Below are positions 22,086 through 42,570 of a DNA stretch of 64,000 nucleotides, piece after piece (positions within the stretch are counted from its first letter, which is position 1; every line of letters starts with the position of its first letter). Made by a program: the position numbers and the translations under genes. The stretch comes from an uncultured Chloroflexia bacterium (GTDB lineage: Bacteria; Chloroflexota; Limnocylindria; Limnocylindrales; CSP1-4), in assembly GCA_963813305.1 (NCBI GenBank), contig CAWEYP010000019.1:20082-84081 (forward strand), read 5' to 3'. The notes beneath the pieces are model-generated. The model did not search any database. It saw only the letters and a program-made list of their open reading frames with translations, and had not been told where the DNA came from.

Positions 22086-22896
22086 TGCGCCGCGACCGCA
22101 ACCCCCTGCTGACCGCTCTACGCCCTGCTCGTCTACGTCTTCCTGTTCGCCCCGATCGTCGTCCTGATCCTCTTCAGCTTCAACGACTCGAAGCGCAACT
22201 TCGTGTGGCGCGGCTTCACCCTGCAGGTGGTACCCGGAGCTGTTCGGGAACGACGCCCTCCTGCGCGGCGCTCGGCGTCACCCTCCAGGTCGCCGTGATC
22301 GCCGTCGTGGCCACGACGATCCTCGGCACGCTCCTGGGCCTGGGCCTGGCGCGCCTGCGCTCGGGCGCGGCCGCCGGGCGCCGCCGACACCCTGATCCTC
22401 CTGCCGATGGTGACCCCCGAGGTGGTGATGGGGATCAGCCTCCTGCTCTTCTTCGCCCTGCTCTTCACGCCGAACGGGTCGATCTGGCAGATCGCGATCG
22501 CCCACATCGCCTTCTCGATCTCGTACGTGGCGATCATCGTGCGGGCCCGGGCCGTCTCCCTGGACCCCCGGATGGAGGAGGCCGCCCGCGACCTCGGGGC
22601 GTCGGCGCGCGGGGCGTTCTTCCACGTGACGCTGCCGCTCATCGCCCCGGCGGTGGCGGCGGGGGCGCTGATCGCCTTCGCCCTCTCGTTCGACGACCTG
22701 ATCATCACCTCGTTCAACGCGGGGGTCGGGCTCGTCGACCCTGCCGCTCTACATCTACTCGCGCATCCGGTTCGGCGTCACGCCCGGAGATCAACGCGAT
22801 CTCCACGATCATCGTGGTCACCACCGCGCTGCTGATCCTCGTCTCGATGCAGGTGAGCTCGCGGCGGGCGCGCCGGCCGGGTGGTCCCGGCAGTGA
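22085..22896 (+). CDS. potC: Polyamine-type ABC permease (PotC-like), frameshifted; 3' end approximate
   Basis: ILFSFNDS, PEVVMGISLL, EEAARDLGAS, LSFDD, PEINAIST. Confidence 0.8.
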
Positions 22897-22928
22897 ACGA
22901 GCGTCCATCCAGCGCAAGGAGCTGACCC

Positions 22929-24389: not shown

Positions 24390-25923
24390 TGGCCGGGCCG
24401 GCGACGGCTCGACCCGGCGCGCGGCCGCCCGGCCGAGCGGCTCCGGCGGCGCCCCGGCGGCGGACGGCCCGAGCGCGACGCCGCCGCTGGAGCCGATCCG
24501 CTCGCATCGCCGGATGCAGTTCCTCGACGACGAGCAGCTCGACCGGCTGCAGGACGCGACGCTCCGGATCCTCGAGGAGGTCGGCGTCCGGTTCCCGTCC
24601 GAGGCCGCCCTGGAGATCCTGGCCGGCCACGGGGCGAGCGTCGACCGGGCGACCCAGGTCGTCCGCTTCCCGCCCGACCTCGTCCGGCGGGCCCTGGCCG
24701 ACGCGCCGCGCACCTTCACGATGGCGGCGCGCGACCCGCGCTTCGACCTCCACCTCGAGGAGGGGGTCAGCTACTTCACGACCGACGGCTGCGGCGTGGC
24801 GACGATCGACTTCGACACCCGCGTGGAGCGGCCGTCCCGCAAGAGCGACGTCGCCGAGATGGCGCGGATCGCCGACTACCTCTCGTCGATCGGCTTCATG
24901 TGGCCGACCGTCAGCGCCCAGGACCACGGCGCGACGTCCCAGCTCCACGAGATCGACGCCGCGGTCAACAACACGGTCAAGCACTTCCAGGGCATGGTCC
25001 AGGGCGGCGAGCCCGCCCGTCGCGCGATCGAGATGGCGACCGTGCTCGCCGGCAGCCGCGAGGCGCTCCGCGAGCGGCCCATGCTGTCCGACCTCATCTG
25101 CTCCATCGCGCCGCTGGCCCACGATCACGACGGCCTCGAGGCGGCGCTCGCCTTCGCCGAGGCCGGGATCCCGGTCGGGATGCTCGCCATGCCGACGCTC
25201 GGCACGACGGCCCCGGCGACCTCGGCCGGCGCCCTGGTCGTCGGCGACGCCGAGGTCATCTCCGGGATCGTGCTCCTCCAGCTGGCCTTCCCGGGCACGC
25301 CGGTCTTCCACTCGATCATGAAGGCCTGGGCCGACCCGCGGACCGGCAGCTACGTCGGCTACTCCATCGACAGCCGGGCGCGCTACGCCCCGGTCGAGAT
25401 GGCCCACCACTGGGGCCTGCCGTCGATGGCCGCCTGCTTCGGGACGGACTCGCCGGCCGCCGGCACCTGGCAGGCCGGCGTCGAGGTGGCCCTCGACCCG
25501 CTCCTCGGCGGCCTCGCGGGCCCCGAGATCGTGACGGGGATGGGCCTCGACCGGACCTACACCCTGCTCTACCCCGAGGCGATCATCCTCGACGACGACG
25601 TCTACCAGCGGGCGCGCCACGCCCTGCTGGCCGAGGAGATCAGCGACGAGACGCTGGCCCTCGACGTCATCGCGAACGTGGGGCCGGGCGGCCACTTCCT
25701 GGCCGAGAAGCACACCCGGACCCACATGCGGACCTCGCTCAAGCGAGGCCTGACCCACGAGCTGGCGCCGGAGGGCGGCTACCGCGACCCGGTCGAGGTG
25801 GCCCGCGAGCGGGTGGCCTGGATCCGGGCGAACCATCATCCGGAGCCGCTCGAGCCGGCCAAGGCGGCCGAGCTGACGCGGATCCTCGCGGCCGCCGACC
25901 GCGAGCTGGGGGCGGCGGCATGA
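24389..25923 (+). CDS. MttB-superfamily methyltransferase, copy 2 (frameshift in the N-terminal extension; core ORF 24514..25923)
   Basis: Same MttB motifs; TGATG overlap with copy 1. Confidence 0.9.
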
Positions 25924-27428
25924 GCGCGACGCCCCCGCTGCGGCCGATCCGGCCGGCCCACCACGCCCGCTTCCTCGACGACGGACAGCTCGCCGACCTG
26001 CGCGCGGCCACCCTGGAGATCCTCGAGGAGGTCGGTGTCCACTGCCCGTCGAAGGCCGTCCGCGCGCTCTACGCCGAGCACGGGGCGCTCGTCGACGAGG
26101 CGCGGGAGGTGGTCCGCCTCCCCGCCGACCTGGTGGAACGGGCGATGGCGCGGGCGCCGCGCGGCTACGTCATGGGCGCGCGGGACCCCGCCTTCGACCT
26201 CGTCCTCGACGGGACCGCCCTGTACGTCGCCACCGACGGCTGCGGGATCGAGGTCCTGGAGCCGGGCGGCCACCGGCGCGCCTCCACGGCCGCCGACGTG
26301 GCGACCGCGGCCCGCCTGGCCGACGCGCTCCCGGCGGTCGGCTTCTACTGGCCGATGCTGAGCGCCCAGGACCATCCTCTGACCGCGCCGCTCCACGAGC
26401 TCCTGGCCTCGTACCCGAACACGGTGAAGCACGTCCAGACCGAGACGGTGATGGGCGCCCGGCCGGCGCGGTACGCGGTGGAGATGGCCCGGGTCCTCGC
26501 CGGCGACGACGCGACGCTGCGGGCGCGGCCGCCGCTCTCCGCGCTCATCTGCACGATCGCCCCGCTGGCCCAGGACGACGAGGGGATGGAGGGGGCCCTG
26601 GTCCTGGCCGAGGCCGGCATCCCGGTCGGCTTCATGTCGATGGCGACGGCCGGCTCCACCGGCCCCGCCACGATCCCCGGCACCGTCGTCGCCGGCGACG
26701 CGGAGATCGTGGCGGCGCTGACGCTCGTCCAGCTGGTCCATCCCGGCGCCCCGGTCTTCCACTCGCTGATGACCGGGATGATGGAGCCGCGCACGGGCGC
26801 CTACCTGGCGACGCCCTGGGAGGGCGAGATCGCCTACGTGGCCGGGGTGGAGCTGGCCCACGCCTGGGGCGTCCCGACCCTCGCCGGCGTCTACGGCACC
26901 GATGCCCGGACGCCGGGCTGGCAGGCGGCCGCGGAGGCGGCGGTGGCCCTGACGCTGTGCGCCCTCGCCGGCGCCGAGACCGGCAGCGGGATGGGCCTCC
27001 TGGAGTCCTGCACGCTCTTCACCCCCGAGCAGCTGGTCCTCGACGGCGACCTCCACGAGCGGGTGCGCTGCACGCTGGCGGCCTTCGACACGAGCCGCGA
27101 GGCGCTGGCCCTCGACGTGATCAGGGCGGTCGGCCCCAAGGGCCACTACCTGTACGAGCGGCACACCCGCGACGAGCTGCGCCGGCGACGCTTCTCCCCG
27201 CTGACCGGGCAGGTGGCCCTCGACGGGACCCCGATCGACCCGGTCGACGCCGCCCGGGCCGAGGCCGCCCGGATCCTGGCCGAGCACCTCCCCGAGCCGC
27301 TCGACGACGCCCGGGCGCGCGAGCTGGCACGCATCGTGGCGGCCGCGGACCGCGAGGCGGAGGCCGGGGAAGGGGCCGCGGCGGCGGCACCCGCCGGTCG
27401 CGGCCACCGCGCGGGGTCGCGAGGATGA
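25920..27428 (+). CDS. MttB-superfamily methyltransferase, copy 3
   Basis: LEILEEVGV, TDGCG, NTVKHVQTE, GSTGPATIPG, VGPKGHYL. Frame intact. Confidence 0.9.
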   Translation: MSATPPLRPIRPAHHARFLDDGQLADLRAATLEILEEVGVHCPSKAVRALYAEHGALVDEAREVVRLPADLVERAMARAPRGYVMGARDPAFDLVLDGTALYVATDGCGIEVLEPGGHRRASTAADVATAARLADALPAVGFYWPMLSAQDHPLTAPLHELLASYPNTVKHVQTETVMGARPARYAVEMARVLAGDDATLRARPPLSALICTIAPLAQDDEGMEGALVLAEAGIPVGFMSMATAGSTGPATIPGTVVAGDAEIVAALTLVQLVHPGAPVFHSLMTGMMEPRTGAYLATPWEGEIAYVAGVELAHAWGVPTLAGVYGTDARTPGWQAAAEAAVALTLCALAGAETGSGMGLLESCTLFTPEQLVLDGDLHERVRCTLAAFDTSREALALDVIRAVGPKGHYLYERHTRDELRRRRFSPLTGQVALDGTPIDPVDAARAEAARILAEHLPEPLDDARARELARIVAAADREAEAGEGAAAAAPAGRGHRAGSRG

Positions 27429-28880
27429 CGACGCTCGTCGAGGTCCTCCCGGCGGCCCGGCGGGAGGAAGTCCGTGAGCGGGCGCTTACTGTCCTGGCGC
27501 GGACCGGGCTCCGGGTCGAATCCGACCGGGCCCGGGCGCTCCTCGGTGCGGCGGGCGGTCAGGTCGACGAGGGCAACCTCCGGGTCCGCCTGCCGCTGGC
27601 CGTCGTCGAGGCGGCGCTTGCGGCCGCCCCCCGCTCGTTCACCCTCGGTGGGCGGCGCGACGGCTGGGAGCTGCCGCTCGACGGGACCGGCTGCAGCCTC
27701 GTCGCCGACGGCGAGGCGCTCCAGACGCTCGAGCTGCCGGCGGGGACCCGGCGCGCGGCGACGGAGGCCGACTGGGAGCAGTCGACGCGCCTCATCGACG
27801 CCCTCCCCGAGGTCGGCGTCTACTGGCGGATGGTCGGCTTCGAGGGCGGCGACCCGGCGCCCGGGCGCGACCGCCCGGGCCTGGGCCGGCGCCTTCACCT
27901 GGTTCGGCCGCCACGTCCAGGACTCGGCGGCCGACGAGGGCGAGGCGCGCTGGCTCCTGGAGATGCTCGACGTCCTCTTCGGGGGTCGCGAGGAGGTCCG
28001 CCGGCGGCGGCCGTTCTCGTTCCTGCTCTGCCCCTTCACGCCGCTCGTCCTCGAGGGGCCGTACACGGACGCCTGGCTGGCGACGGTCGACTGGGGGCTC
28101 CCGGTGGCGGCGATGCCGATGCCGATGATGGGCCTCTCGGCGCCGGTCGGGCTCCTGGCGACGACGGTGCTCGGGACGGCCGAGACGCTGGCGACCCTCT
28201 GCCTGGTCCAGGCCGCGGCGCCCGGCACGCCGTTCATCTTCGCACCGGCCCTTGCGGTCATGGAGCCGCGGAGCGGGCGCTACGCCGGCGGCGCCGTGGA
28301 GCACGCCCTCCTGGGCGCGGCGACGACCGAGATGGCCCGCCACCTCGGGCTTCCCGTCCAGGCCTCGGTCGGCGGGACGGACGCCCACGTTCCGGGCGTC
28401 CAGGCCGGCCTCGAGCGGGCCCTCGGCGCGCTTCTCCCCGTGCTCGCCTGGCCGGACCTCCTCGTCGGCCCGGGGCTCCTCGGCGGCTCGACCGTCTACT
28501 CGCCCGAGCAGCTCATCCTCGACGTGGAGCTCTTCCGCCGGTGCCTGCGCCTCCGGCGAGGCATGGACGGCGCCTTCGAGGAGGCCGTCGAGGCGGCGCT
28601 CGACGAGGCCGGGCCCGGCGGCGACTTCATCGCCCGGCCGGCGACCCGGCGGGCGACCCACGAGGGCGAGTGGCACCTCGACCGGATCGGCGTCCGGGAC
28701 ACCTGGGAGCGCTGGGAGGCGGCCGGGCGGCCGGACGCCGTCGACGACGCACGGGCGCTCGCGACGGAGCTGCTCGCCACCCACGAGCCACCACCCATGG
28801 ACGAGGCGACGGCGCGCGCGCTCGCCGACCTCGTGGAGCGGGCTGCCGCGGCGGACGCGGCGGCGACGAAGGGACGATAG
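27425..28880 (+). CDS. MttB-superfamily methyltransferase, copy 4 (divergent; frameshift near 27860)
   Basis: VLARTGLRV, AAAPRSFTL, PMMGLSAPV, AAAPGTPFIF, AGPGGDFI. Confidence 0.85.
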
Positions 28881-28882
28881 CG

Positions 28883-30317
28883 ATGCGGTACGGGGCAACC
28901 TTCCTCGACGGCGCCGAACGCGACCAGGTCCACGAGGCGAGCCTGCAGATCCTCGCCGAGACCGGCGTGCGCTTCCACGGCGAGCGGGCGCTGCCGCTGC
29001 TGGCCGACGCCGGCGCCCAGGTGGACGCGGAGGCCGGCGTGGCCCGGATCCCGCGCGAGCTCGTCGAGGCGGCCCTGGCGTCGGCGCCCCGCTCTTTCGT
29101 CCTCGGCGCCCGCAATCCGGCCCACGACTACGCCCTCCCCTCCCCGGTGACGCGCTACGCGATCGACGGGACGGCCGCCTTCGCCATCGACTTCGAGACC
29201 GGCGAGCGGCGCTACGGCACGCGGCGCGACTGCGGAGCTGGCGCTGCGCGTCTTCCAGCAGGCGGACATGGGGGTCATGGCCTGGGCGCCGGTGACCGCC
29301 TCCGACGCCCCCGCCGGGACGCGCGCCCTCCACGAGTTCGTGGCGATGGTCCGCCACTCCTCCAAGCACGGGCAGCACGAGCTCCACACCCGGGAGCAGG
29401 TCCCCTTCCTCGCCGAGGCCCTCACGATCGCCGGGGGCGGCGCGGCCGCCGTCCGCGAGCGCCATCCCTGGTCGCTGATCTACTGCCCGGTCGCGCCGCT
29501 GGTCCACGACGGGCCGATGCTCGACGCCTACCTCGACCTCGGCGAGCTCGACCTGCCGGTCATGATCATGCCGATGCCGGTGACGGGCACGACCGGCCCG
29601 GCCGGGCTCCTGGCGAACGTCGCGCTGGCCAACGCCGAGGCGCTCTCGGCGATCGTCGTCTACCAGCTGGCGCACCCCGGGCGGCCGGTGATGTACAGCA
29701 GCGCCACCGGCTCGATGGACTTCCGCACCGGCGCCTTCCTGGGCGGGACGCCGGAGATGGGGATCATGTCGGCCGCGCTCGTCACGATGGGCCGCTCGTA
29801 CGGCCTGCCGGCCACCGCGGCGGGCTGCACGTCCGACGCGCCTGAGCCCGGGCCGGAAGCGGTCATCGAGAAGCTCGTGACGATGCTCCCGCCGGCCTCG
29901 GCCGGCGCCGACATCGTGGTCGGCTTCGGCGAGATCCAGGGCGACCAGGCCCTGGTCCTCGAGCAGATCCTCGTCGACAACGAGCTGGCCCACTACGTCG
30001 AGCGCCTGGTGGAAGGGGTCGGAGAGCCGGCCGACCCCGACTTCGTCGCCGAGGTGGCCTCGGTCGGGCCGGGCGGCAACTTCCTGGCAAGCCGCGTCAC
30101 CCGCCGTGCGGCCCGCAGCCGCGAATTCCTCGTGCCGTCGCTCATCGGCCGCCACGCCTACGAGGCCTGGCGCGACCTCGGCTCGCCGTCGATGTACGGG
30201 CGGGCCCGGGACCGGGTTCGCGAGATCCTCGCCGGACCCGTCGTCGACCCCCTCCCCGACGCCGTCGAGGCCGAGCTGGCCCGCGTCCTCGCCGCCGCCG
30301 ACGCGGAGCTGGGATGA
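28883..30317 (+). CDS. MttB-superfamily methyltransferase, copy 5 (frameshift near 29230)
   Basis: HEASLQILAETGVRF, SSKHGQ, GTTGPAGL, MDFRTG, VGPGGNFL. Confidence 0.87.
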
Positions 30318-30382
30318 CCGACGCCCCCGGCGCCGCGCCCGCCACCACACCCGTTCGCCATGCACCCCCGGAGGACCGAGCC

Positions 30383-31030
30383 ATGACCGAGGACCTGTTC
30401 GCGGCGATGCGCCAGAGCGTGATCGACGGCGATTCCGACGCCGCGGCCGAGCTGGCCAGGCAGTCCCTGGCGGCGGGCATGGACCCCGTCGCCGCCATCG
30501 ACGAAGGGTTCGTGCCCGGGATCCACATTGTCGGCGAGCAGTTCCGCTGCGGCGACATGTTCCTGCCCGACATGATGCTCGCCGCCCGCGCGATGCAGAA
30601 GGCGATCGGCATCCTCGAGCCGGAGATGCTCGCCCGGTCCGCCCAGCGCAAGGTCCTGGGGCGGGTGGTCATCGGGACGGCGAAGGGCGACATCCACGAG
30701 ATCGGCAAGAACCTCGTCGGGATGATGCTCACGGCGAACGGCTTCGAAGTCCACGACCTCGGCGTCGACGTGACGCCGGAGCGCTTCGTGGAGAAGGTGC
30801 GCGAGGTCGGGGCGAACGTCGTCGGCGTGTCGGCGCTCCTGACGACGACGATGGTCGGCCAGCGCGCCGTCATCGCCGCCCTCGCCGACGCCGGCCTGCG
30901 CGACAGCGTCAAGGTGGTGGTCGGCGGCGCCCCGGTCACCCGGGCCTGGGCCGACGAGATCGGCGCCGACGGCTACGGCGAGGACGCCGTCGGGGCGGTC
31001 ACCGTCACGCGGGCGCTCGTCGGCGCCTGA
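30383..31030 (+). CDS. Corrinoid (cobalamin-binding) methyl-acceptor protein, MttC/MtgC-like
   Basis: Cap domain plus GTAKGDIHEIGKNLV (DxHxxG), VGVSALLTTT, VVGGAP, GADGY. GGAGG RBS before 30383; alternative start at 30314. Confidence 0.93.
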   Translation: MTEDLFAAMRQSVIDGDSDAAAELARQSLAAGMDPVAAIDEGFVPGIHIVGEQFRCGDMFLPDMMLAARAMQKAIGILEPEMLARSAQRKVLGRVVIGTAKGDIHEIGKNLVGMMLTANGFEVHDLGVDVTPERFVEKVREVGANVVGVSALLTTTMVGQRAVIAALADAGLRDSVKVVVGGAPVTRAWADEIGADGYGEDAVGAVTVTRALVGA

Positions 31031-31062
31031 GGGTCCAGGATGATGAAGCGCGGGCTCGTGCG

Positions 31063-31674
31063 ATGACCGGCGGCGATGCTCCGGGACCCGTTCCTGCGAG
31101 GCCGTCGCGTTGGCGCGTCGGTCCGCCGGGTGTGCTCGTCTCCCTCGCGACCGCCACCGCGATCGTGATCGCGCTGGACGCGAGCTCCCGGGGGTCGCTC
31201 GGGACGTACCTGATCGCCGCGCCGATCTGGTTCGTGATCGCGGGCGCATGGCTCGTGCGGTTCGGCATGGCCGCGGCGCGAACCCGGCTGCGGATGCCGA
31301 CCGCGCACTGGGCGCGCTGGCTGATGATCCCGGTCGCGATGGGGCTCGTGTTCCTCGTCACGCGGACGGAGGTGCTGTTCGACACCCGGCTCGCCCTCTC
31401 GCGCGGTGCGATGGACCAGATGGCCGCGGACGTGATGGCGGGCGGCTCGGCGGACCGCGGCTGGGTCGGCCTGTACGACGTGGGCGAGGTCGAGCGGACC
31501 GCGAACGGCTTGCGGTTCGTGGTCGATGACAGCGGTCTCTACCGACTGGGGTTCGCCTACTCGCCCGACGGAGAGCCGAGGCTGACCGAGGACAACTACT
31601 CGCCACTCTGGACCGGCGCAACCTTCGAGCCGGTGGGCGGCGGCTGGTGGCTCTGGTCCGAGGCGTGGGACTGA
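31063..31674 (+). CDS. Hypothetical membrane protein
   Basis: Three hydrophobic segments and a C-terminal GFAYSPDG...GGGWW domain. Confidence 0.65.
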   Translation: MTGGDAPGPVPARPSRWRVGPPGVLVSLATATAIVIALDASSRGSLGTYLIAAPIWFVIAGAWLVRFGMAAARTRLRMPTAHWARWLMIPVAMGLVFLVTRTEVLFDTRLALSRGAMDQMAADVMAGGSADRGWVGLYDVGEVERTANGLRFVVDDSGLYRLGFAYSPDGEPRLTEDNYSPLWTGATFEPVGGGWWLWSEAWD

Positions 31675-31829
31675 GGGCCCGTCGTCGAAGGATCCCGTTC
31701 GGCGAGGCCGCGGGGTGGCTCCGGCGGGTGCTCGATGGCGACGTGCGCGAACGCAAGGTCGAACACCTGCATTCCGTGGAGGCTCTGAGGTGCAGTGAGG
31801 TTCGGGCCGCCCATGGGCTGACCTGACGC

Positions 31830-32504
31830 TCACTCGGCCTGATCAGGAGCCGACGTCGTGGCGACGTCCACCTCGTTGCCGGCCGGATCGGCGAGCGTCC
31901 AGAAGCCCTCCTCGAGGTTGTGGCGGACGATCCGGCCACCCGCCGCGAGGCCTGCCGCCACCCGCGACTCGGCCTCGTCCCACGGCACCCACACGACGAG
32001 ATGGATGGTCCCCGCACCATCGGCCCGCAACTCGTCCATGTCCTCGAACCACAACGGAGCCAGGCGACCGTGCGGATCGATCAGATCCTCGCCGGGACTG
32101 TCCGGCCGTCGGTCGTAGCCGAGCACCCCTAGCCAGAACGGCATGATCTCGCGTCTGTCGGTCGCACCGGGGATGATCGAGAGGCTCTGGATCGCCGCTG
32201 GCTCGGCGGTGAGCCCGATCTCCCGGGCAGTCGTCGAGATCGCTCGTGCGAGGTCGAGGTCGCTCTGCACGAGGCCGAAGTCGCGACCCTTGAACGCCCG
32301 GATCATGACGGTCACGCCGTCGCCGCGGATGTCCATGTCGGGCTCGTCGCCCTCACCGACGAGCCCGCTGATCGCGTCGATGAACCGGGCGGACGCGATG
32401 AGCGAGTCGGTCCGGAAGAATGCGTAGGCGCCGTCGGGCAGCACGCGCCACGCCTCGGCGCCCTCCGCCCCGTGGAACTGCCGCGAGAAGATCCTGTCGG
32501 TCAT
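31830..32504 (-). CDS. VOC/glyoxalase-like protein with N-terminal pterin-dehydratase-like domain
   Basis: PFWLGVLGY, DLIDPHG, IHLVVWV, LAAGGRIV, WTLADPAGNEVDV. AGGAG RBS. Confidence 0.8.
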   Translation of the reverse strand: MTDRIFSRQFHGAEGAEAWRVLPDGAYAFFRTDSLIASARFIDAISGLVGEGDEPDMDIRGDGVTVMIRAFKGRDFGLVQSDLDLARAISTTAREIGLTAEPAAIQSLSIIPGATDRREIMPFWLGVLGYDRRPDSPGEDLIDPHGRLAPLWFEDMDELRADGAGTIHLVVWVPWDEAESRVAAGLAAGGRIVRHNLEEGFWTLADPAGNEVDVATTSAPDQAE

Positions 32505-32674
32505 GGGTGCTCCTGAAGTCGTACACGGCCTTGACTGCGAGGCCGATCGTCACCCGACATGGAGCGACCGATCTCCTTCATCGAGGCCTCCATGTTGCAT
32601 GCGCCGATCAAGGCTGGAGCGGCGCCCAGCCCGCGTCAGCCGAGCTGGATCGTTCGACTGCCGGCCTTGAGCCG

Positions 32675-34763
32675 TCAGACGAGATCGCGGGGGATCCGTT
32701 CCTCCCACGTCCGCTCGAAGACCTCCGCGCCGTCCTCGCTGACCGTGAGGTCGATCCGGACCTCGAAGTCGGCCGCGGTCGAGCTGACGACGAGGCTCCC
32801 GTCGGCGGTGACCTGCCGCCCGTCGGAATAGATGACGCGGTAGAAGGTCCGGCCCTCGGCGACGCAGGTCGCCCAGTCGTCGCCTGCCGTGATCCGGAAG
32901 CGCTCCTCCGAGCCGAAGAGGAGGCCGCCGCGCTCGGGGAACCGATGGCCCCCGCCGGCCTCGGAGATGAGCGTCGTCGTCCCGGCCAGCTCATCGCGCT
33001 CGACGCGCCATGCCTCCGGGATCCCGGGACGCTCCTCGGCCGTGCCCGGGTCGAAGGCGCCGGTGCCGAGGTCCTCGGTGGCCGGCGCCCAGCCGGCCGG
33101 CGTCGGGAGGCGCAGGCGCGACGGCCGCTCGACGTCGTGGAACACGGTGAGCGTCACCGGCCCGGGCGGCGGCCAGGCGATCGGGAACGCGGCGCCGGCG
33201 ACGGCGACCCGCAGCCTGTGGCCGGCGGGAACGCGGGCCCCGGTCGCGGTGAGCGGCACCGTCACCGCCATCACCTCGCCGGGGACGACCGGCGACGGCT
33301 CCTCGAACGAGGCCCGCCGGGTCAGGTTGAGCAGGCCCCGGGCGAGGAGCGCGGAGGTCCCGTCCGGGGCGACCGCCTCCAGCCGGACGGCGACCTGGGC
33401 GACCGGTCGGTCGGCGGCCACCCAGAGATCGACGTCGGGGAGGCCGGCGACCAGCATCGGCTCGAGGAGCGGGTCGCCCGTGTACACCAATGCCCGGGCG
33501 TCGTCCGGGCGCTGGTCCAGCGGCCCGCCCTGCGGCTCCCAGCCGGTGCAGGTGAAGGGCGCAGTCATGGCCGACGCGGGGCCGCCGGCCCACGTGTCGG
33601 GGTCCTCGTGCGCGGGGGGTGGCGCGTGGCCGAGCGTCCCCGAGCCCGGCCGCGCCGGCCCCACCGAGGTGGAGCGGGGGCGGCGGGGCGATCCGGAGCA
33701 CGGACGGCCAGCGGCCGATGGCCCACCAGCGACCGGGCGCACGCGGCGGGGCGACCTCGACGGGGAACGGCTCGCCGGCCTCGGGCTCCACGACGTAGAC
33801 CGTGAGGGCGGGTCCGTCGTCGATCCCGTTCCGCTCGTCCTTCAGCCAGCGATCCCACCAGCGGGTCATGAGGCCGACGCCGTCGATCGTCGGGGCCGGG
33901 GCGCCGGCGTGCGGCCAGGCGTGGCCCCACGGACCCAGGATCCCGCGGGCCGGGGCGCGGACGTTGGCCACGGTCTCGAGGACGCTGTCGCGGTACGAGT
34001 CCCCGAGCCCGCCGAGGGCCAGCACGGCCGCCTCGATCGAGCCCCAGTCCTCGATCGCCGAGCCGTGCTTCCAGTGGTCGTCGCGGCGCTGGTGGCGCAG
34101 CGAGCTGAGCGGCCACTGCGGCGTCAGGTCGAGGCGCCGCAGCCACTCCTCGCGCCAGCCCTCCCCGAAGCGCTCGGGGTCGGGCGGCAGGGCGTTCTCG
34201 CCGACCATCTCGACCGGCCAGTAGGCGCTTTCCCCGATGAGGCGGGTGCCGCCCCACCAGTGGACGTCGACGTGGTAGCGATCGTGGCTGAAACAGGCCG
34301 GGATGATCGCCTTCAGCGCCGGCGGCCGGCGCATCGCGGCCTGCAGCGCCGAGAAGCCGCCCCAGCTGATCCCGAACATGCCGACCGTCCCGGCGCTCCA
34401 GGGCTGCGAGGCCAGCCACTCGATGACCGCCACGTTGTCGAGGATCTCGCGCTCGGTGTACTCGTCCTCGGCGATGCCGCGGCTGCTGCCGGTGCCCCGG
34501 ACGTCGAGCCGGCAGCTCACGTACCCGGCGGCGGCGAACGCCCCGTTGAGCGGCCAGTCGCGCGACAGGGTCCAGTCGTCCTTGCGGTACGGGATCGATT
34601 CCAGGACGGCCGGAAACGGGCCGGCGTCAGGCGCGTCGGGGACGTAGAGCGTCGCCGCGAGGTCGATCCCGTCGTCCATCGGGATCCGGATCTCTTCCGT
34701 TCGCACCGGGAGCCCCACGGGCCGGCCGTCGACCACGTAGCGCCGCGTCACGAAGCCTGGCAT
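32675..34763 (-). CDS. CocE/NonD family hydrolase (frameshift near 33690)
   Basis: IPMDDGIDLAATLY, PYRK, DVRGTGSS, nucleophile GISWGG, GPWGH, C-terminal PepX-like domain. Confidence 0.88.
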
Positions 34764-34880
34764 CGCTTCCTCCCGGGACCCCTCGCCGCGCGGGCCGCCG
34801 TCGGCTAGTCTAGGCGCGCGCCGGTCCCGGTTGGCGACGGTGGACGCGGAGGCGGCCGGCGAGGGGAGGTTGTTCGCGCC

Positions 34881-36545
34881 ATGGCCGAGCCGGTCATCCT
34901 CGTCGTCGACGACGAGCCCGCGGTGCTGCGCGCCGTGGAGCGGGAGCTTCGCGGCCACTTCGGGGCCGCCTACACGGTGGTGGCGGCCGATTCCGGCAAG
35001 ACCGCCCTCGACGTCCTCAACCGCCTCGCCCTGCGCGACACGCCCGTCGCCCTGCTCCTCGTCGACCAGCGGATGCCTGGCATGACCGGGATCGAGCTGC
35101 TCGCCGCGTCGCTGGATCTCGTGCCCGATGCCCGGCGGGTCCTCCTCACGGCCTACGCCGACACCGAGGTCGCGATCCGGGCGATCAACGAGATCCGTCT
35201 CGACCAGTACCTCCAGAAGCCCTGGGAGCCCCCGGAGGAGCGCCTCTTCCCCGTCCTCGACGACCTCCTCTCGGACTGGCGGGCCACCTTCCGGCCGCCG
35301 TTCGAGGGCATCCGCCTCGTCGGCCACCGCTGGTCGGCCCGGGCCCACGAGATCAAGGACTACCTGGCCCGCAACCTGGTGCCATATCGGTGGGTCGACG
35401 TGGAGGCCGACACCGAGGCGGCACGGCTGGCTGCCGCCGCCGGGGTCGACGCGGGGCGCGATCCCCTCCTCGTCTTCCCCGACGGGAGCCACCTCCTGGC
35501 CCCGTCCAACGCCGAGATCGCCGACCGCCTGGGGCTGCGGACGCGGCCCGACCTGGCGACCTACGACCTCGTCATCGTCGGCGGGGGGCCGGCCGGGCTG
35601 GCCGCCGCCGTGTACGGCGCGTCCGAGGGGCTCCGGACCCTGCTCGTCGAGCGCGAGGCACCGGGAGGCCAGGCGGGCACGACCTCGCGGATCGAGAACT
35701 ACCTGGGGTTCCCGTCCGGCCTCTCCGGGGCGGACCTCGCGCGGCGGGCCGTCGCCCAGGCGACCCGCCTCGGCGCCGAGCTGCTCACCGCGCGCGACGC
35801 CACCGCACTGGCCATCGAGGACCGTTACCGGCTGCTTACGCTCGACGACGGCAGCCGGGTCTCCTGCGAGGCGCTCATCGTGGCAACCGGCGTCCAGTAC
35901 CGGCGCCTCGACGTTGACGGGATCGACCCGCTGGTGGGCGTCGGCGTCTTCTACGGGGCCGCGATCACCGAGGCGCTGGCCTGCAAGGGTCAGCGCGTGG
36001 CGGTCGTCGGCGGCGGCAACTCCGCCGGCCAGGCGGCAGTCCACCTGTCGCAGTACGCCTCCGAGGTGACGCTGCTCGTGCGGAGCGGCTCCATCGAGGC
36101 CGGGATGAGCGCCTACCTCGTCGACCAGCTGCGGGCGATCCCGAACGTGACGATCCGCCTCAACGCCAGCGTGGCGGCGGTCCGCGGGACGGACAGCCTC
36201 GAGGCGATCACGGTGGAGGACTCCGCCGCCGGCACGCGGGAGGACATGGCGATGGATGCTGTTTTCCTGTTCATCGGTGCGCTTCCGCGCACGGAGTGGT
36301 TGGCGGGCCTGGTGGAGCGCGACGGTGCCGGGTTCCTGGTGACCGGGCCGGCCCTGGCCCGGGCGACGGACGGGCGCGTGGCCGGCTGGCCCCTGGCCCG
36401 GGAGCCATTCCTGCTGGAGACGAACGTGCCCGGCGTCTTTGCCGCGGGCGACGTCCGCAGCCGCTCGGTCAAGCGGATCGCCTCGGGCGTCGGCGAGGGG
36501 TCGATGGCCGTCCAGTTCGTGCACCAGCACCTCGCCGGGCTCTGA
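34881..36545 (+). CDS. Receiver domain + glutaredoxin-like domain + thioredoxin-reductase-like FAD oxidoreductase fusion
   Basis: ILVVDDE, DQRMP, LTAY, KPW; then GGGPAG, GGQ..TSRIENYLGFP, VGGGNSAGQ, FAAGDV. No CxxC. Confidence 0.9.
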   Translation: MAEPVILVVDDEPAVLRAVERELRGHFGAAYTVVAADSGKTALDVLNRLALRDTPVALLLVDQRMPGMTGIELLAASLDLVPDARRVLLTAYADTEVAIRAINEIRLDQYLQKPWEPPEERLFPVLDDLLSDWRATFRPPFEGIRLVGHRWSARAHEIKDYLARNLVPYRWVDVEADTEAARLAAAAGVDAGRDPLLVFPDGSHLLAPSNAEIADRLGLRTRPDLATYDLVIVGGGPAGLAAAVYGASEGLRTLLVEREAPGGQAGTTSRIENYLGFPSGLSGADLARRAVAQATRLGAELLTARDATALAIEDRYRLLTLDDGSRVSCEALIVATGVQYRRLDVDGIDPLVGVGVFYGAAITEALACKGQRVAVVGGGNSAGQAAVHLSQYASEVTLLVRSGSIEAGMSAYLVDQLRAIPNVTIRLNASVAAVRGTDSLEAITVEDSAAGTREDMAMDAVFLFIGALPRTEWLAGLVERDGAGFLVTGPALARATDGRVAGWPLAREPFLLETNVPGVFAAGDVRSRSVKRIASGVGEGSMAVQFVHQHLAGL

Positions 36546-36551
36546 GCCGAC

Positions 36552-38725
36552 GTGGCCGCGCCGCCCGAACCCGCAGTGCCTGAACCCGCAATGCCTGAAC
36601 CCACGCCGCTCAGACCCACGCCGCTCGAGCCGGCACCGCCCCTGCCCGCGGAGCGTCCGCGGCGGGACCCGCCCGACCCGCCGCTGTCCGACGAGGCCGT
36701 CCTCCTCCGCCTTCCCCGTGATGACGACGCGGCGGCGATCGCGGCCGCCTGTGACGATCCCGAGATGGCCCGCTGGATCCCGGTCCCCGTCCCCTACCTG
36801 CCGTCCGACGCGCGCACGTTCATCGGCGAGATGGCCGATGGCTGGGCTGCCGGGACGGCCATCGCCTTCGTCATCGAAGAGCGGGCAACCGCGGCCCTCG
36901 CGGGGATGATCGGCCTCCACCCGGGGGACATGCCGGGGCGGGCGTCGGTGGGCTACTGGCTGGCACCCGAGGCGCGGGGGCGCGGCATGGCGACCCGGGC
37001 GGTCCGGCTCCTGGCGGCGTGGGCATTCGCGGATCCCCGTCTCGAGCGACTGGAGCTGATGACCCTGGTCGGCAACGACGCCTCCGGCCGCGTCGCGATG
37101 CGGGCGGGCTTCCGGCGCGAGGGGATCCTGCGCCGCTACCTGCCGTTCCGGGGCACGACCGTCGACGCGGTGATGTACGGCATGGTCCGCGACGAGGGCG
37201 TCGACGCCGACGGGGACGGCATCCCGGACGATCCGCTGGCCCGCGTGTCGCTCTTCGCGGGCCTGGCGCCGGCGGAGCTGGCCCGGATCCGCGGCGTCAC
37301 CACCGAGGTCGCCCTCGCAGCCGGCGCGACCCTCATGACGGAGGGCGACCCGGGCGACGCCCTGTTCGTCGTGCTCGAGGGCACCCTCGCCGTGTCGACG
37401 CGGGCAGGGACCGGAGAGCTGCCGCTCACGACGGTGGGCCCGGGAACCGTCCAGGGCGAGATCGCGGTCCTCGACGGCGGCGTCCGCCGGGCGACCGTTC
37501 GGGCGGCGACGCCGGCCCGCCTGCTGCGCATCGGGCGCGATGACCTGTTCGACGTGATGGCCCGGGAGCCGGCAATCATCAGGTCGCTCGCCGCCACCGT
37601 GGCCGGGCGGCTCCGAGGCCTCGAGGCGTCCGTGCAGGAGCAGGAACGCCTGGCGTCGCTGGGGACCCTCGCGGCCGGCCTCGCCCACGAGCTGAACAAC
37701 CCCGCCGCCGCGGCCCGCAGCAGCGCGGGCCGGCTGCTCGACGCGCTCGACGAGTGGGACCGTGCATCCGCCGCCCTCGGCGAGCCGATGGGAGCGGTCG
37801 GATCTGCCGGGAGGGGGACGGCCGAGCGGTGGGATCGGCCGGAGCGGTGGGATCGGCCGGAGCCCCGCTGGCCGCCGAGCTGCTGGACACCCTTCGCGAG
37901 GAGGTCGCCCGGCGGGCCGGCGATCCGCCCCTTCTCGACCCCCTCGACGCCGCCGACCGGCGGGACGCCGTGGCCCGGCTGCTCGGCACGCTCGGCCTGC
38001 CCGACCCGGTCGAGCCTGCGGCATCGCTCGTCGCCCTCGGCTGGGACGGCAACCAGCTCGACGACCTGCTGGCGCCCTTCGGGACGGACGAGGCCCGCCT
38101 CGTCGTCGCGGCGTGGCTTGCCGCGAGCGCGCTCGTGCGCCAGCTGCTGGCCGAGGTGACGCTCGCGGCCGGGCGGATCAGCGAGATCGTCGCCGCCGTT
38201 CGCGAGTACACCTACCTCGACCGGGCCCCGATCCAGCGGATCGACGTCACCGCGGGGATCGAGAGCACCCTCGTGATCCTTCGCTCGAAGTGGAGGGCCG
38301 GCGTGACGATCGAGCGCGCCTATGCCCCGGGCCTCCCGCCGATCGAGGCCTACGGCAGCGAGCTCAACCAGGTGTGGACCAACCTGGTCGACAACGCGAT
38401 CGGAGCGATGGGCGGCTCGGGCCACCTGCGGATCACCGCCCAGCTCGCACCCGGGGGCGACGGTGTCGTCGTCGAGATCAGCGACAGTGGACCCGGGATC
38501 GCGGATGACGCCGCGGCCCACGTCTTCGACCCGTTCTTCACGACGAAGGAGATCGGGGCGGGCACCGGTCTCGGCCTCTACATCTCGCGGTCGATCGTGG
38601 AACGGCACGGTGGCCGCCTGGAGATCGCGGCGACCGGGCCGGACGGGACCTGCTTCCGGGCAACGCTCCGAGCCCGCCTCCCCGAGCCTCCCTCCGTCGA
38701 TCAACCGACGGCGGAGGGCCGTTGA
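36552..38725 (+). CDS. GNAT (RimJ/L-type)-cNMP-binding-sensor histidine kinase fusion (frameshift near 37815)
   Basis: VGYWLAPEARGRGMAT, NDASGRVA, GFRREG; EGDPGD...GEIAVL...RRATV; GLAHELNNP; LNQVWTNLVDNA, DSGPGI, FDPFFTTK, GTGLGL. Confidence 0.85.
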
Positions 38726-38756
38726 CAGGGCGGGCGGCGACCCGCAGCATCGCGAC

Positions 38757-41565
38757 GTGGACGGACCCGAACGTCCCCCGACCACGGATCCGCCGGTGAC
38801 GACGCCGGCGGAGGGCGTCGGCGCGCCTCCGGCCCTCCCGACGGGCACCGTGACCTTCCTCTTCACCGACATCGAGGGCTCGACGCGCCTGGCCCACGAC
38901 CTCGCCGACCGCTGGCCCGCGCTCCTCGAGCGTCACCGGCAGATCCTCCGGGCGGCCTTCGGCGCCCACGGCGGCATCGAGGTCCAGACCGAGGGCGACG
39001 GGTTCTTCGTGGCCTTCGCCCGGGCGCCCGGCGCGGTGGCGGCGACCGTCCAGGCCCAGCGAGACCTGGCCGCGGAGCCGTGGCCGCCGGATGGCGCCGT
39101 CCGGGTCCGGATGGGGCTCCACGCGGGCGAGGGCGTCGTCGACGCAGACGGCTCGTACGTCGGCCACGACGTCCACCGCGCGGCCAGGGTCGCGGGGGCG
39201 GCGCACGGCGGCCAGGTGCTGCTGTCACGGACGCCGTCGGGCGCTCAGCGCGGCATCGCTCCCGGCGGGCGTCTCGCTCCGCGAGCTCGGCGAGCACCGC
39301 CTCAAGGACCTGCGGCCGGAGCCGCTCGCCCAGCTCGTGATCGACGGGCTCCGCGCCGACTTCCCCCCGGTGCGCTCGCTCGACGTCCGGCCCAACAACC
39401 TGCCGACGCAGCTGACCTCGTTCGTCGGGCGCGAGCGGGAGCTGGGGACCGCGACGCGCCTCCTCGCGACGACGCGGCTCCTGACGCTGACGGGCCCGGG
39501 CGGCACCGGCAAGACGCGCCTCTCGCTGCAGCTCGCCGCGGCCGGTCGCCGACGACTACCCGGACGGCGTCTGGTTCGTCGCGCTGGAGCCGCTCCGCGA
39601 CCCGTCCCTCGTCGCTGCCGGCGATCGCCCGGACGCTCGGCGTCTACCAGCGGCCGGGCGAGACCGCGCTGCGAGGCCCTGGCGACCGCGGTCGACCGGC
39701 AGGCGCATGCTCTTCGTCCTCGACAACTTCGAGCAGGTGATCGAGGCGGCCGTCGACGTCGGCGACCTCCTGCGCGCCTGCCCAGCCGTGCGGGTGGTCG
39801 TCACGAGCCGCGCCGTCGCTCCGCGTCTCGGGCGAGCAGGAGTACGTGGTGCCGGGCCTGCCCGCGCCGCCCGACACCAGCCGGCTCTCGCGCGTCGAGC
39901 TGGAGAACCTCCCGGCCGGCCTGCGCCACCCGGACCCGGCGTCGCTCGAGCAGTACGAGGCCGTCCGCCTCTTCATCGCCCGCGCCGTCGCCGTTCGCCC
40001 GGACTTCCACGTCACCAACGAGAACGCGCCGGCCGTGGCCGGCATCTGCGCCCGGCTCCACGGCATGCCGCTCGCGATCGAGCTGGCGGCCGCCCGCGTG
40101 AAGCTCCTCGCGCCCGAGCAGATCCTCGAGCGCCTGGAGGGGCAGCTGGGCCTGTTGACCTCGACCGCCCGCGACCTGCCCGACCGCCAGCGGACGCTGC
40201 GGGGCGCGATCGCCTGGAGCTGCGACCTCCTGGACGAGCCCCAGCGCCGGCTGCTTGCTCGCCTGTCGGTCTTCCGGGGCGGCTGGGACCTCGACGTGGC
40301 CGAGGCCGTGGCCGGTGCGGGCGACGGGCCGGCCATCGACGTCCTCGAGGGCCTGGCCGCGCTCGTCGACCAGAGCCTGGTCCGCAGCGCCGAGGAAGCC
40401 GGGGAGCCGCGCTTCGCCATGTTCGAGACGATCCGCGAGTTCGCCGCGGAGCTCCTCGAAGCAGCCGGCGACGCCGACGCCACGCGGGAGCGGCACGCCC
40501 GCGTCTTCCTCGACCTGGCCGAGCGCCTGGCGCCGCTCCTGCAGGGCGCCGAGCAGCGCACATCGCTGGACCGCCTGGAGCGCGACCACGACAACCTGCG
40601 CGCCGCGCTGTCGTGGGCGACCGGGCGGCCGGATCCCGAGACCGCGGTGCGCCTCTGCTTCGCGCTCTGGCGGTTCTGGCAGCAGCGCGGCTACCTGGGC
40701 GAGGCGCGGGTGCGGCTGGACCGGATCGCCGGGCAGGCGTGGGACCTGCCGGCGCCACTCAGGGCACGCTTCGCCGAGACGCTGGGGGGCGTCGCCTACT
40801 GGCAGGCCGACCTGCCCGTCTCGGCCGCCCGCTACGACGAGGCGCTCGCGATCTGGCGGGAGCGCGCCGCCGGCGGTGATCCCGCCGACCGGCGCGAGCT
40901 GGCGAACGCGCTCTACAACCGGGCATTCGTCACGGTGGCCGATGTGACGTGGCTGCAGCAGGGGGTTGCCGCCGATCGCAGACGCCGCCCGCGCGATGAT
41001 GGAGGAGGCGCTGGCGATCTACCAGGAGCTCGGCGACGCGGGCGGCGAAGGCAACGCGCTCTGGGGTCTGGGCGGCCTCGAGCTGTACGCCGACGATCCC
41101 GGACTGGCAGAGCCGTGGTACCGGCGCTCGCTGGAGCTCCACCGGGCTGCGGGCCACCGGACGATGGAGGCATGGTCGCTCCACATGCTCGCCGTCACGA
41201 TGATCGCGCTGGACCGGATCGACGAAGCCGACGAGGCTTCGCGCCACGCCATCGCCCACTTCCGCGATGCCCACGACCTGGCCGGCCTCACGCTCGGCTT
41301 CGATGCCCTGGCCGCGGTGGCCGTCGCTCGCGGCGACGAGGCTCGCGGGGGACGCCTGTGGGGCCTCGCGCGCCAGCTCGAGCGCGTGAGCGGGACCGCC
41401 CTTGCCGCCTGGGACGAGGCCGTCTTCGCGAACCTGCCGTCGTCTCCGCGGTCCCGGATCGAGCCCGCCGTGCTCGAGGCGCTTGCCGCGCAGGGCGCGG
41501 CCCTGCCCCTGGCCGACGGGGTCGCCTACGCCCTCGGCGAGACGGATCCGTTCACCCTCGGGTAG
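38757..41565 (+). CDS. Class III adenylate/guanylate cyclase-STAND ATPase-TPR protein (several frameshifts)
   Basis: TVTFLFTDIEGST, GDGFF, RVRMGLH, VHRAAR; NNLPTQLTSFVGRE, GPGGTGKT, LDNFEQV, GMPLAIELAAA; helical TPR-like C-terminus. Confidence 0.85.
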
Positions 41566-41578
41566 CCGGGGTCTGCGG

Positions 41579-42229
41579 TCAGGCGACGAGGTCGGCGGCG
41601 ATCACGGCCGCGAAGACGAGGATGATCGCGTTCCCCAGCACGATCACCCCGGCGCGCAGGCCGGGCGGCAGCCGCCGGTGGAGGAACGCCCCGACCGCCG
41701 CGATGAGCGTCTGCCATGACAGCGAGGCCAGGAACGCTCCGGTCACGAAGGCTGCCTTCTCGGTGGGGCCGGCGCCGGTCGCGGTCAACCCGAGGATGAG
41801 CGCGGCGAAGTAGGTGACCGTCACCGGGTTAAGCAACGTGATGCCGAGGAAGACCCCGTAGGTGCGGAGCGCGGATCCCCCGCGCTCGGCCGCCTCGACG
41901 TCCGGCGGGATCTCCGCGTCGCCGGCCGGGGTCGCAGCGCTCGCCGCCCGCAGCCCGAGCAGGCCGCGGACCGCGATGACCACCAGCAGCACCACGGCCA
42001 GCACCCGCAGCGGCGTCTCGACGGGGACGAGGACGCTCGCGAGCGCGGCCCCGAATGCGGCCGCCACGATCGCGTAGATGCCGTCCGCCGAGGCCGCGCC
42101 GGCACCCGCGGCGGCCGCCAGCCGGAAGCCGCGCCGCAGGCCCGTCTCCACGATGAGGATGGAGATGGCGCCGACCGGGATCGCGATCCCGTAGCCCGCC
42201 ACGGCGCCCGCCAGGAATGCCGTGATCAC
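41579..42229 (-). CDS. LysE family transporter
   Basis: IAIPVGAISIL, GAASADG, ITLLNPVT. Confidence 0.87.
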   Translation of the reverse strand: MITAFLAGAVAGYGIAIPVGAISILIVETGLRRGFRLAAAAGAGAASADGIYAIVAAAFGAALASVLVPVETPLRVLAVVLLVVIAVRGLLGLRAASAATPAGDAEIPPDVEAAERGGSALRTYGVFLGITLLNPVTVTYFAALILGLTATGAGPTEKAAFVTGAFLASLSWQTLIAAVGAFLHRRLPPGLRAGVIVLGNAIILVFAAVIAADLVA

Positions 42230-42352
42230 CGGGGCACGGTAGGGGCCGAGCTGGCGCTGCGTCAAACTGCGCCCCGCCGGCCGCCGGCCGGCCCGGCTTC
42301 CCGGGATCGCGACCGGCGCCGGCCGCGTCAAGGTCATGGCAGACGACGGGCC

Positions 42353-42570
42353 CATGCACGCGGCATGTTCATTGTCGCCGTGCTGGGGGCCGCTGGCCGG
42401 ATGCGTCGATCCCGCGGACGGGTCACCGGGTCGGCTTCCGGAGCCGAACGCTCACGATGTGAGCATCGGGCCGCCCAGGGCGAGACCACACGCTGCGGGG
42501 CTGTCCGCGGGGCGCCACGTCGAGGCTCGGAACGGGACCTTGGGCCCGGAATGAACATGCCGCGTGCATG
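42353..42570. repeat. 218-bp element bounded by perfect 21-bp inverted repeats (MITE-like)
   Basis: CATGCACGCGGCATGTTCATT (42353-73) and AATGAACATGCCGCGTGCATG (42550-70). Confidence 0.6.

Follow-up and report, generated by a model that had tools for sequence, protein, structure and literature searches.

In this study, we describe a cluster of three genes found at positions 34881 to 41565 of a 64,000-nucleotide stretch of DNA, hereafter called the window (G000:C19:20082-84081), whose G+C content is 74%. The explanation that we favour for the locus as a whole, and which we hold to be fairly probable, is that of a signalling cluster of three genes, from a soil bacterium of high GC content, built around a relay in which a kinase responding to cyclic nucleoside monophosphates (cNMPs) would control a response regulator. 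The regulator is predicted to carry a thioredoxin reductase (TrxR)-like flavoprotein devoid of redox cysteines, the kinase a canonical cyclic nucleotide-binding (CNB) domain, and the two genes are found side by side in several phyla. The source genome, estimated to be 56% complete, consists of 22 contigs that add up to 2.85 Mb, and a close orthologue of gene 1 carries the label Candidatus Limnocylindrales, Chloroflexota.

All three genes lie on the plus strand. Gene 1 (34881..36545) is an intact open reading frame (ORF) of 554 amino acids (aa) for a response regulator made of a receiver (REC), a glutaredoxin (Grx)-like and a TrxR-like domain. Gene 2 (36552..38725), which is spread over two frames, encodes a GNAT-CNB-histidine kinase, and gene 3 (38757..41565), which holds seven +1 insertions, encodes a class III cyclase joined to a STAND NTPase and TPR repeats. 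The TGA of gene 1 (36543-36545) is separated by 6 nt from the GTG of gene 2 (36552), and the TGA of gene 2 (38723-38725) by 31 nt from the GTG of gene 3 (38757). The common orientation, the domain order and the 6-bp and 31-bp gaps that had been proposed in a first-pass annotation of the bare sequence are all borne out by the ORFs and by Pfam.

A response regulator with a predicted cysteine-less flavoprotein output

Sequence and model comparisons indicate that the gene 1 product is a phosphorylatable response regulator whose output has the TrxR fold but lacks all four redox cysteines. Pfam recognises Response_reg at aa 6-118 (7.7e-16) and Pyr_redox_2 at aa 228-540 (1.3e-35). In the receiver, D10, D11, D62, T90 and K113 are all present, the phospho-acceptor Asp62 standing in the motif DQRMP (35064..35078). 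This DD-D-T-K signature is kept in the window and in 80/80 distant orthologues, which are those of the best 80 of 596 relatives retrieved by a pattern scan with one genome per species (49-62% identity).

The receiver is followed by a Grx/NrdH-like domain (about aa 143-222; 35307..35546) and by a TrxR-like FAD/NAD(P)H domain (35562..36542). In two paralogues from related genomes, L027 and L028, the Grx-like domain contains WCPDC and the TrxR domain CATC; aligned with them, the gene 1 product shows RWSARAH and AAIT at these CxxC sites, and alignments together with model superposition place the family motif YGAxxxEA where CATC would stand. Neither CxxC occurs in any of the 150 best family representatives (one per 50%-identity cluster). 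Among 23 diverse members (alignment A2) no Cys is invariant, while Y358, G359 and E364 are, as are the FAD/NAD(P)H glycine motifs. The gene 1 product itself retains GGGPAG, GGGNSA and the GD motif, and its binding of FAD and NAD(P)H is probably retained. Its AlphaFold (AF2) model (pLDDT 87.5, pTM 0.73) superimposes on the Lactococcus lactis TrxR 5mh4, in the FR conformation, with a TMt of 0.94 and an rmsd of 2.4, and a Foldseek search with this model gave AhpF the best E-value, over ~520 columns.

Many orthologues of gene 1 have been named 'thioredoxin reductase (NADPH)' by JGI, and both the fold match, with a TMt up to 0.94, and the presence of the FAD and NAD(P)H glycine motifs would agree with gene 1 being a genuine NADPH thioredoxin reductase under phosphorylation control. 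We regard this as extremely improbable in view of the changes from CATC to AAIT and from WCPDC to RWSARA, the absence of CxxC from all 150 representatives and of any invariant Cys in A2, and the occurrence in related genomes of true paralogues with both CxxC motifs. The TIGR01292 score of gene 1, 229.3 bits for a cut-off of 343.45, also argues against a true TrxR. Because both CxxC motifs are gone, dithiol-disulfide chemistry would be impossible for this output, and the redox output proposed by the first-pass annotation finds no support as a thiol reaction. As a lesson for annotation, 'thioredoxin reductase (NADPH)' is the wrong name for proteins of the gene 1 type.

Gene 1 shares its two-Rossmann fold with the low-molecular-weight TrxB enzymes (5mh4 from L. 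lactis, 7jyp from Thermosipho and 1tde from E. coli; sequence E-values to 1e-45). It differs from them in having no active-site cysteines, in falling below the TIGR01292 cut-off and in bearing the extra N-terminal REC and Grx-like domains. Like AhpF and the L027/L028 paralogues, it has a thioredoxin-fold domain before the TrxR-like core, and the paralogues are 40-42% identical to it from the Grx-like domain onward. Unlike gene 1, however, AhpF and the paralogues keep CxxC in both domains and pass electrons from one domain to the other, and gene 1 adds the receiver. The paralogues themselves (L027:3618-4787, plus strand; L028:10455-11645, minus strand) are Grx-like and TrxR fusions without a receiver, and they may represent the thiol-active ancestor type of the gene 1 output module.

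The architecture of gene 1 is the same as one listed in a census of two-component systems, whose passages on response regulators with enzymatic outputs mention thioredoxin reductase joined to REC, there called a 'Mycobacterium-like combination' (PMC5847659). These passages of the census give no function or partner kinase for the combination and do not remark on missing cysteines. The cysteine-less module was also found in single-chain proteins of ~550 aa (P0161, P0177 and others; 45-51% identity to gene 1), in which cNMP_binding takes the place of REC in 17/17 representatives, with the match starting near residue 140. The cysteine-less module is therefore wired straight to a CNB domain too. 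Unlike gene 1, these proteins have a direct input, with no kinase and no receiver, and our literature search found no characterised member among them. Other arrangements were noted as well: a C-terminal CNB domain on a REC-TrxR-like protein (P0124), and an N-terminal SnoaL_2 (P0133, P0136) or C-terminal EF-hands (P0233) on the cysteine-less module.

A kinase-regulator pair shared by several phyla

Gene 2 is predicted from its domains to encode a soluble histidine kinase with a canonical CNB domain. The GNAT, cNMP and ATPase domains claimed for it were confirmed by Pfam (Acetyltransf_3, 2.5e-29; cNMP_binding, 1.1e-18; HATPase_c, 1.6e-24), and an H-box, AHELNNP (37683..37703), is present with its predicted autophosphorylation His. 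Pfam HisKA gave no score at E 0.01 or better either in gene 2 or in its orthologue from G007, a related genome. A stretch of ~130 residues separates the H-box from the catalytic HATPase_c domain (38360..38674).

A CNB-type kinase directly adjoins the gene 1 orthologue, on the same strand, in 14/14 loci of the genus and in 20/20 loci of the class. The 80 distant loci come from Chloroflexota, Cyanobacteria, Acidobacteriota, Actinomycetota, Bacteroidota, Gemmatimonadota, Planctomycetota and Proteobacteria, and in 69 of them CNB and kinase profiles match on one open segment within 7 kb. The 72 kinase segments collected lie mostly downstream on the same strand (60), the others being upstream on the same strand (10) or on the other strand (2), and AHELNNP or a close variant is found in 54/72. 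Pfam was also run on the first downstream same-strand ORF, which a simple rule selected in 65/80 loci: 48 of these ORFs contain cNMP_binding and HATPase_c, 5 HATPase_c alone and 1 cNMP_binding alone, and 11 are unrelated.

Altogether, these comparisons identify the kinase-regulator pair as an old two-gene module of many phyla and as the conserved core of the cluster. The partnership from kinase to receiver that the first-pass annotation had proposed gains support from this adjacency (14/14, 20/20 and 69/80); the receiver signature present in 80/80 and the CNB cassette that is kept also agree with the first-pass annotation. The architecture of the pair is known but uncharacterised; the window contributes a lineage in which the sensor is canonical, a cyclase neighbour recurs and a GNAT fusion is specific to the genus. 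Homologues of gene 1 fall into 3940 cluster representatives at E 1e-30 or better, a figure in which ordinary TrxR-like relatives are included, and with thousands of homologues the pair would count as rather widespread among two-component pairs whose output does not bind DNA. Within the class, the gene 1 orthologue is patchy: it is present in 51/151 sampled genomes (a tally that includes two unpublished genomes), with 3/44 in the family of the window and 47/50 in a sister family.

The sensor domain of the kinase

The CNB domain of gene 2 (37308..37565) scores 67.4 bits with cNMP_binding, for a cut-off of 27.5. Its phosphate-binding cassette, which begins at 37455, matches that of the protein kinase A subunit PKA RI-alpha residue for residue (Gly-Glu...Arg-x-Ala-Thr). 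The canonical cassette is present in 14/14 members of the genus, and a simple GE..R pattern matches 20/20 further loci of the class, the match in L116 being doubtful. Among the distant kinase segments, the canonical form is found in just 7/72 (L043, L054, L061, L069, L071, L079 and L080), and Chloroflexota account for 6 of these 7.

The cassette Arg is missing from the other 65/72 distant segments, and the family overall may therefore sense a signal that is not a cNMP; in most phyla, the kinase has a sensor without the nucleotide-binding Arg and its signal is obscure. Many kinases of the Acidobacteriota type (L053, L057-L059, L062-L066 and others) have instead a conserved G-x-L-P-F/Y-S-R-M (LPFSRM) at the cassette position, which hints at another ligand in this clade. 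Such losses and replacements would fit a CNB-like domain that recognises neither cAMP nor cGMP but some other ligand, or no ligand at all, with a cyclase in the neighbourhood by coincidence. For the window, we consider this quite unlikely: here the cassette is canonical, as it is in all 13 genus orthologues, and PKA RI-alpha (E 9e-18) and cAMP-binding regulators are the best solved matches of the domain. We keep to a kinase that would be gated by a cyclic nucleotide.

At its N-terminal end, gene 2 of the window also has a specific, proline-rich in-frame insertion of 28 codons (36563..36646, from orthologue alignment), which includes a 15-bp tandem repeat (36563-36602) and is absent from all six closest orthologues.

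The neighbouring cyclase and a putative cyclic nucleotide pool

Domain matches and alignments assign gene 3 to a class III cyclase of the Rv1900c/Ma1120-like type, which continues into a STAND NTPase and TPR repeats. Its description as a class III cyclase with a P-loop ATPase and TPR was confirmed in domain content by Pfam. Guanylate_cyc (PF00211) matches at 1.3e-8, with 35.1 bits for a cut-off of 21.9, and the catalytic domain covers 38838..39390. It is followed by the Walker A motif GPGGTGKT of the STAND NTPase (39493..39516). In the broken gene 3 of the window, AAA_16 stays under its cut-off (1.3e-5, 26.2 bits for 32.6), and the G007 orthologue reaches 27.8 bits with nSTAND1 (cut-off 27.1) and 30.4 bits with AAA_22 (cut-off 27). 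The TPR repeats (TPR_12, 41053..41265, 1.1e-15) score from 45 to 58 bits in gene 3 of the window and in the G007 orthologue.

The best solved relatives of the cyclase domain are Ma1120 (4wp3, 1.4e-19) and Rv1900c/LipJ (1ybt, 2.8e-13). Alignment to these two proteins identifies the metal-binding Asp motifs FTDIEGST (38862-38885) and EGDGF (38991-39005), as well as VHRAAR (39171-39188), and both metal-binding Asp and the transition-state Arg are kept. At the substrate-Lys position gene 3 has Gln, where Ma1120 has Lys and Rv1900c has Asn, and at the transition-state Asn position it has a His that aligns with the His of Rv1900c. Sinha et al. 2005 reportedly found that Rv1900c tolerates substitutions at these substrate-Lys and Asn positions. 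With Gln for Lys and His for Asn, the cyclase activity and the nucleotide specificity of gene 3 therefore remain predicted. Gene 3 resembles Rv1900c in its metal Asp pair, its Arg, its His at the Asn position and its non-Lys residue at the substrate position, and differs from it by the Gln at the Lys position and by its fusion to a STAND NTPase and TPR repeats, not to a hydrolase. Rv0386, a mycobacterial cyclase-ATPase protein, is presumably comparable to gene 3. As for Ma1120, the passages that describe it present an adenylyl cyclase with Ala at the transition-state Asn position (PMC4215837).

The cyclase is linked to the pair in 13/14 loci of the genus, in three arrangements. In 8 loci (G005 and 7 in which the GNAT-kinase is fused) it lies directly downstream. 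In 4 it is also downstream, with a LysE gene of the opposite strand in between, and in 1 it is in convergent orientation ~1.7 kb away; there is no cyclase in the one remaining locus as examined (G018). In the sister family, an orthologous cyclase (E 1e-74 to 1e-88) is found downstream on the same strand in 8/18 loci, belonging to three genera, and the 10/18 loci of five other genera have none. Outside the class, it was found in 2/80 loci, namely in metagenome-assembled genomes (MAGs) of a Chloroflexia (L036) and of a Sphaerobacter (L069), and not in the other 78/80 by the profiles used, which derive from 12 (cyclase) and 11 (GNAT) close orthologues and may overlook remoter class III cyclases or GNATs of another kind in these loci. 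A Pfam check of 40 second-downstream ORFs, chosen by a simple rule, gave Guanylate_cyc in 1/40. The triad is thus kept in all but one locus of the genus and in part of the sister family, and the cyclase is not conserved next to the pair outside the class, an outcome that the first-pass annotation had itself named as telling against its proposal. In a Streptomyces locus (L097:10322-13450), the gene after the kinase combines AAA_16 with a LuxR-type GerE domain and shows no cyclase match, that is, a STAND-type neighbour with a different class of output.

At the scale of the genome, Guanylate_cyc has 21 matches, several of which are pieces of one gene and many of which lie in ORFs of at least 1000 aa, against 5 for cNMP_binding. 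The genome would seem to have an expanded family of cyclase-STAND proteins for a small number of receptors. Given these numbers, the module is not self-contained, contrary to what the first-pass annotation had concluded, and the neighbouring cyclase need not be the relevant source of nucleotide. Judged from the same matches, the kinase would belong to a small set of receptors drawing on a pool to which many cyclases can contribute. The cyclase-domain matches are spread over several contigs, for instance at C10:184198-184692 and C17:124968-136237 of G000.

These observations can also be read as making the cyclase-STAND-TPR protein an independent bystander, with a kinase that reads the cell-wide cNMP pool or is uncoupled from this cyclase. 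The rarity of the cyclase in the distant loci and second-downstream ORFs, its absence from 10/18 loci of the sister family and the 21 cyclase matches for 5 CNB matches in 2.85 Mb all go in this direction. So do the LysE gene on the other strand between kinase and cyclase in four genomes of the genus and the convergent cyclase in one, from which it also follows that co-transcription is not general. Against the bystander, linkage outlasts three arrangements within the genus, and a second family shows it again in three of its genera, where the cyclase domains are orthologous; a cyclase neighbour is also seen in the Sphaerobacter and Chloroflexia MAGs, and the lineages that have one keep the canonical CNB cassette, L036 excepted. 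On balance, we think that a bystander is a possible but somewhat unlikely role for this cyclase. The proposal that the cyclase supplies the cNMP for the kinase accordingly holds up in terms of linkage within the genus (13/14) and part of the sister family (8/18), and finds little echo in the distant loci (2/80) or the second-downstream ORFs (1/40).

A GNAT domain fused to the kinase

The N-terminal domain of gene 2 (36699..37115) is a RimJ/RimL-type GNAT (Acetyltransf_3, PF13302), with a score of 103 bits for a cut-off of 25.4. Its acetyl-CoA motif, RGRGMA, aligns with the same segment of 1nsl, and its best solved relatives are 1nsl (YdaF), 2fck (RimL-like) and MccE; it is not Pat-like. Of the 14 genomes of the genus, 8 have the GNAT fused before the CNB domain, 4 have it as a gene of its own upstream of gene 1, and 2 lack it at the locus. 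None of the 18 sister-family loci showed it, and the profile from 11 close orthologues detected it in 1/80 distant loci. When the first 330 residues of the G007 protein were used as query, GNAT, cNMP_binding and HATPase_c occurred together in 46 of the 120 database clusters listed, each of the 46 sharing 64% identity or more with the query. As far as these searches reach, the GNAT-kinase fusion is restricted to the genus of the window. The shift of the GNAT from neighbouring gene to fused domain argues for a functional tie with the kinase-regulator pair, and the fusion offers a handle on a possible link between cyclic nucleotide, phosphorelay and acetylation.

The first-pass annotation had compared gene 2 with the mycobacterial cAMP-gated acetyltransferase Rv0998, an analogy that did not withstand closer comparison. 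Like Rv0998/MsPat (4onu, 4oll, 4orf), gene 2 joins CNB and GNAT in one chain, and the CNB domain of Pat is a weak match to that of gene 2 (E 2e-6). Unlike these proteins, gene 2 has its GNAT first, N-terminal to the CNB domain and of the RimJ/RimL/YdaF type, followed by a complete kinase core; the fusion is found in this genus only, with the GNAT a separate gene upstream of gene 1 in four of its genomes and absent in two.

Frame breaks in genes 2 and 3

Genes 2 and 3 had been taken as continuous genes. Stop-to-stop translation breaks both, and the first-pass annotation missed the eight frame breaks. Gene 2 is open in one frame to ~37830 and in another from ~37826 to its stop, and orthologue alignment places the break in an 18-bp tandem repeat of AVGSAG units (37791..37863), where the window has 50 nt more than five orthologues and L014 has 42 nt more. 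Gene 3 contains seven +1 insertions that are private to the window when compared with six orthologous loci (39236, 39544, 39614, 39671, 39701, 39817/8 and ~40980). In G007, a 95% complete genome in 2 contigs, all three genes are single open frames; genes 2 and 3 measure 669 and 1087 codons from stop to stop, gene 2 has Acetyltransf_3, cNMP_binding and HATPase_c, and gene 3 has Guanylate_cyc, AAA_22/nSTAND1 and TPR_12.

We aligned ten syntenic blocks of the window with G007 and with a second related genome, G004, and counted the private frameshifting insertions and deletions: 29 and 7 in the window, 11 and 12 in G007, and 9 and 5 in G004. The 29 insertions for 7 deletions, together with a completeness of 56%, fit an insertion-prone long-read assembly. 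No obvious motif is common to the inserted bases, most of which lie outside homopolymers. Private single-base insertions bunch in stretches of the window, for example at 11135-11855 and 52089-54006.

Logan short-read-type contigs from four public runs (X1, X2, X4 and X7) were then compared with the window over 37500-41200. Those of X1 (97.5-100% alike) do not have the extra base at 39671, 39702 and 39818, those of X2 lack it at 39542/39544 and 40980, and those of X4 and X7 at 39818. The extra base is thus absent from short-read contigs at 5/7 sites of gene 3, while 39236 and 39614 are outside the contig cover. Since private insertions occur throughout the window and the extra base is missing at these five sites, the frame breaks of gene 3 are most likely insertion-type assembly errors. 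The run contigs could derive from close relatives and therefore support this without proving it. For the gene 2 break we hold the same explanation to be likely, with somewhat less assurance: the repeat is spanned by no X1 contig, and the thin cover of X2, X4 and X7 shows no listed difference.

Eight frame breaks within 3.2 kb, six of them within 580 bp of gene 3, could also be the mark of true pseudogenes in a module that is decaying here, the more so as the gene 2 break and two of the gene 3 sites are left unsettled by the reads. We find this improbable. All seven breaks in gene 3 are +1 insertions, and stop-creating in-frame substitutions were not noted; like insertions are found window-wide; completeness is 56% although the genome is near full size; contigs from X1 and from the other runs lack the extra base at the sites given above; and gene 1, which lies between broken stretches, is intact. 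Any gene call in the source genome needs comparison with relatives.

A possible relay and its wider reading

Taken together, these observations make a cNMP-kinase-regulator relay, in our opinion, a fairly probable reading of the cluster as a whole. In such a relay, cAMP or cGMP would bind the CNB domain of the kinase and alter autophosphorylation at the AHELNNP His, from which the phosphoryl group would pass to Asp62 of the receiver. Phosphorylation of Asp62 would then change the activity, the conformation or the oligomeric state of the thiol-free flavoprotein, which could either be a pseudo-enzyme or catalyse an NAD(P)H-dependent redox reaction with an acceptor other than a disulfide. The STAND-TPR part of the neighbouring cyclase would gate this enzyme, one local nucleotide source among many in the genome. 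The fused GNAT would provide another output, or else a modifier served by the same CNB domain.

Several points weigh against this relay. To those already raised, namely the missing Arg of most distant kinases, the Gln and His of the cyclase, its absence from many loci, its LysE-interrupted or convergent arrangements, the excess of cyclases over receptors and the thin cover of the gene 2 repeat, we add two others. The genomes of the genus are kin, and counts made within it therefore overstate independence. Moreover, our literature search found no biochemical data for any member and no published test of the kinase or of the regulator; the search for CNB-TrxR fusions gave irrelevant papers only, judged by listing. 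With its canonical cassette and an orthologous cyclase next door, this lineage is the best setting in which to learn what signal the module senses and what its cysteine-less TrxR does.

A bolder and rather doubtful extension is that the ancestral, truly cyclic-nucleotide-gated form of this multi-phylum module survives in the present class of Chloroflexota, with a STAND-gated cyclase that would produce cAMP or cGMP for a canonical CNB kinase, and a receiver that, once phosphorylated by this kinase, would switch a thiol-free flavoprotein derived from TrxR. If this were true, the regulator would represent a novel type of NAD(P)H redox effector, or of pseudo-enzyme, under second-messenger control, and the CNB domain fused directly to the flavoprotein module elsewhere would mean that cNMP control arose at least twice. 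The fused RimJ/RimL-type acetyltransferase would, moreover, make the kinase an enzyme with two outputs, phosphorylating and acetylating.

Genomic setting of the cluster

The cluster is flanked by two genes on the minus strand, an X-Pro-dipeptidyl-peptidase-type hydrolase upstream and a LysE-type exporter downstream. The hydrolase (32675-34800, minus strand) is of the CocE/NonD or X-Pro-dipeptidyl-peptidase type (PepX_C, 3.4e-33), and it is split across two frames, with a private insertion at 33642. In 34300-42500, a promoter scan returned 0 promoter-like sites and a terminator scan 2 terminator-like sites for 0.9 expected, neither of them at the end of a cluster gene. Run X7 is a metatranscriptome; its contigs are mostly 90-95% alike over parts of the region and, as contigs do not reveal transcripts, we draw no claim on expression from them. 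Similarly, the labels of public runs give every habitat a share of at most 0.19, and no claim on habitat is made from them.

Further upstream, the window has a stretch of ~15 kb (17433-32675) that the syntenic regions of G007 and G004 lack. Its frames likewise look broken. It contains at least three ORFs of the MttB superfamily (24514-25923, 27474-28880 and 29268-30317), together with pieces of ABC transporters and solute-binding proteins at 17922-20000 and 20640-21710, and it may be a quaternary-amine demethylation island.

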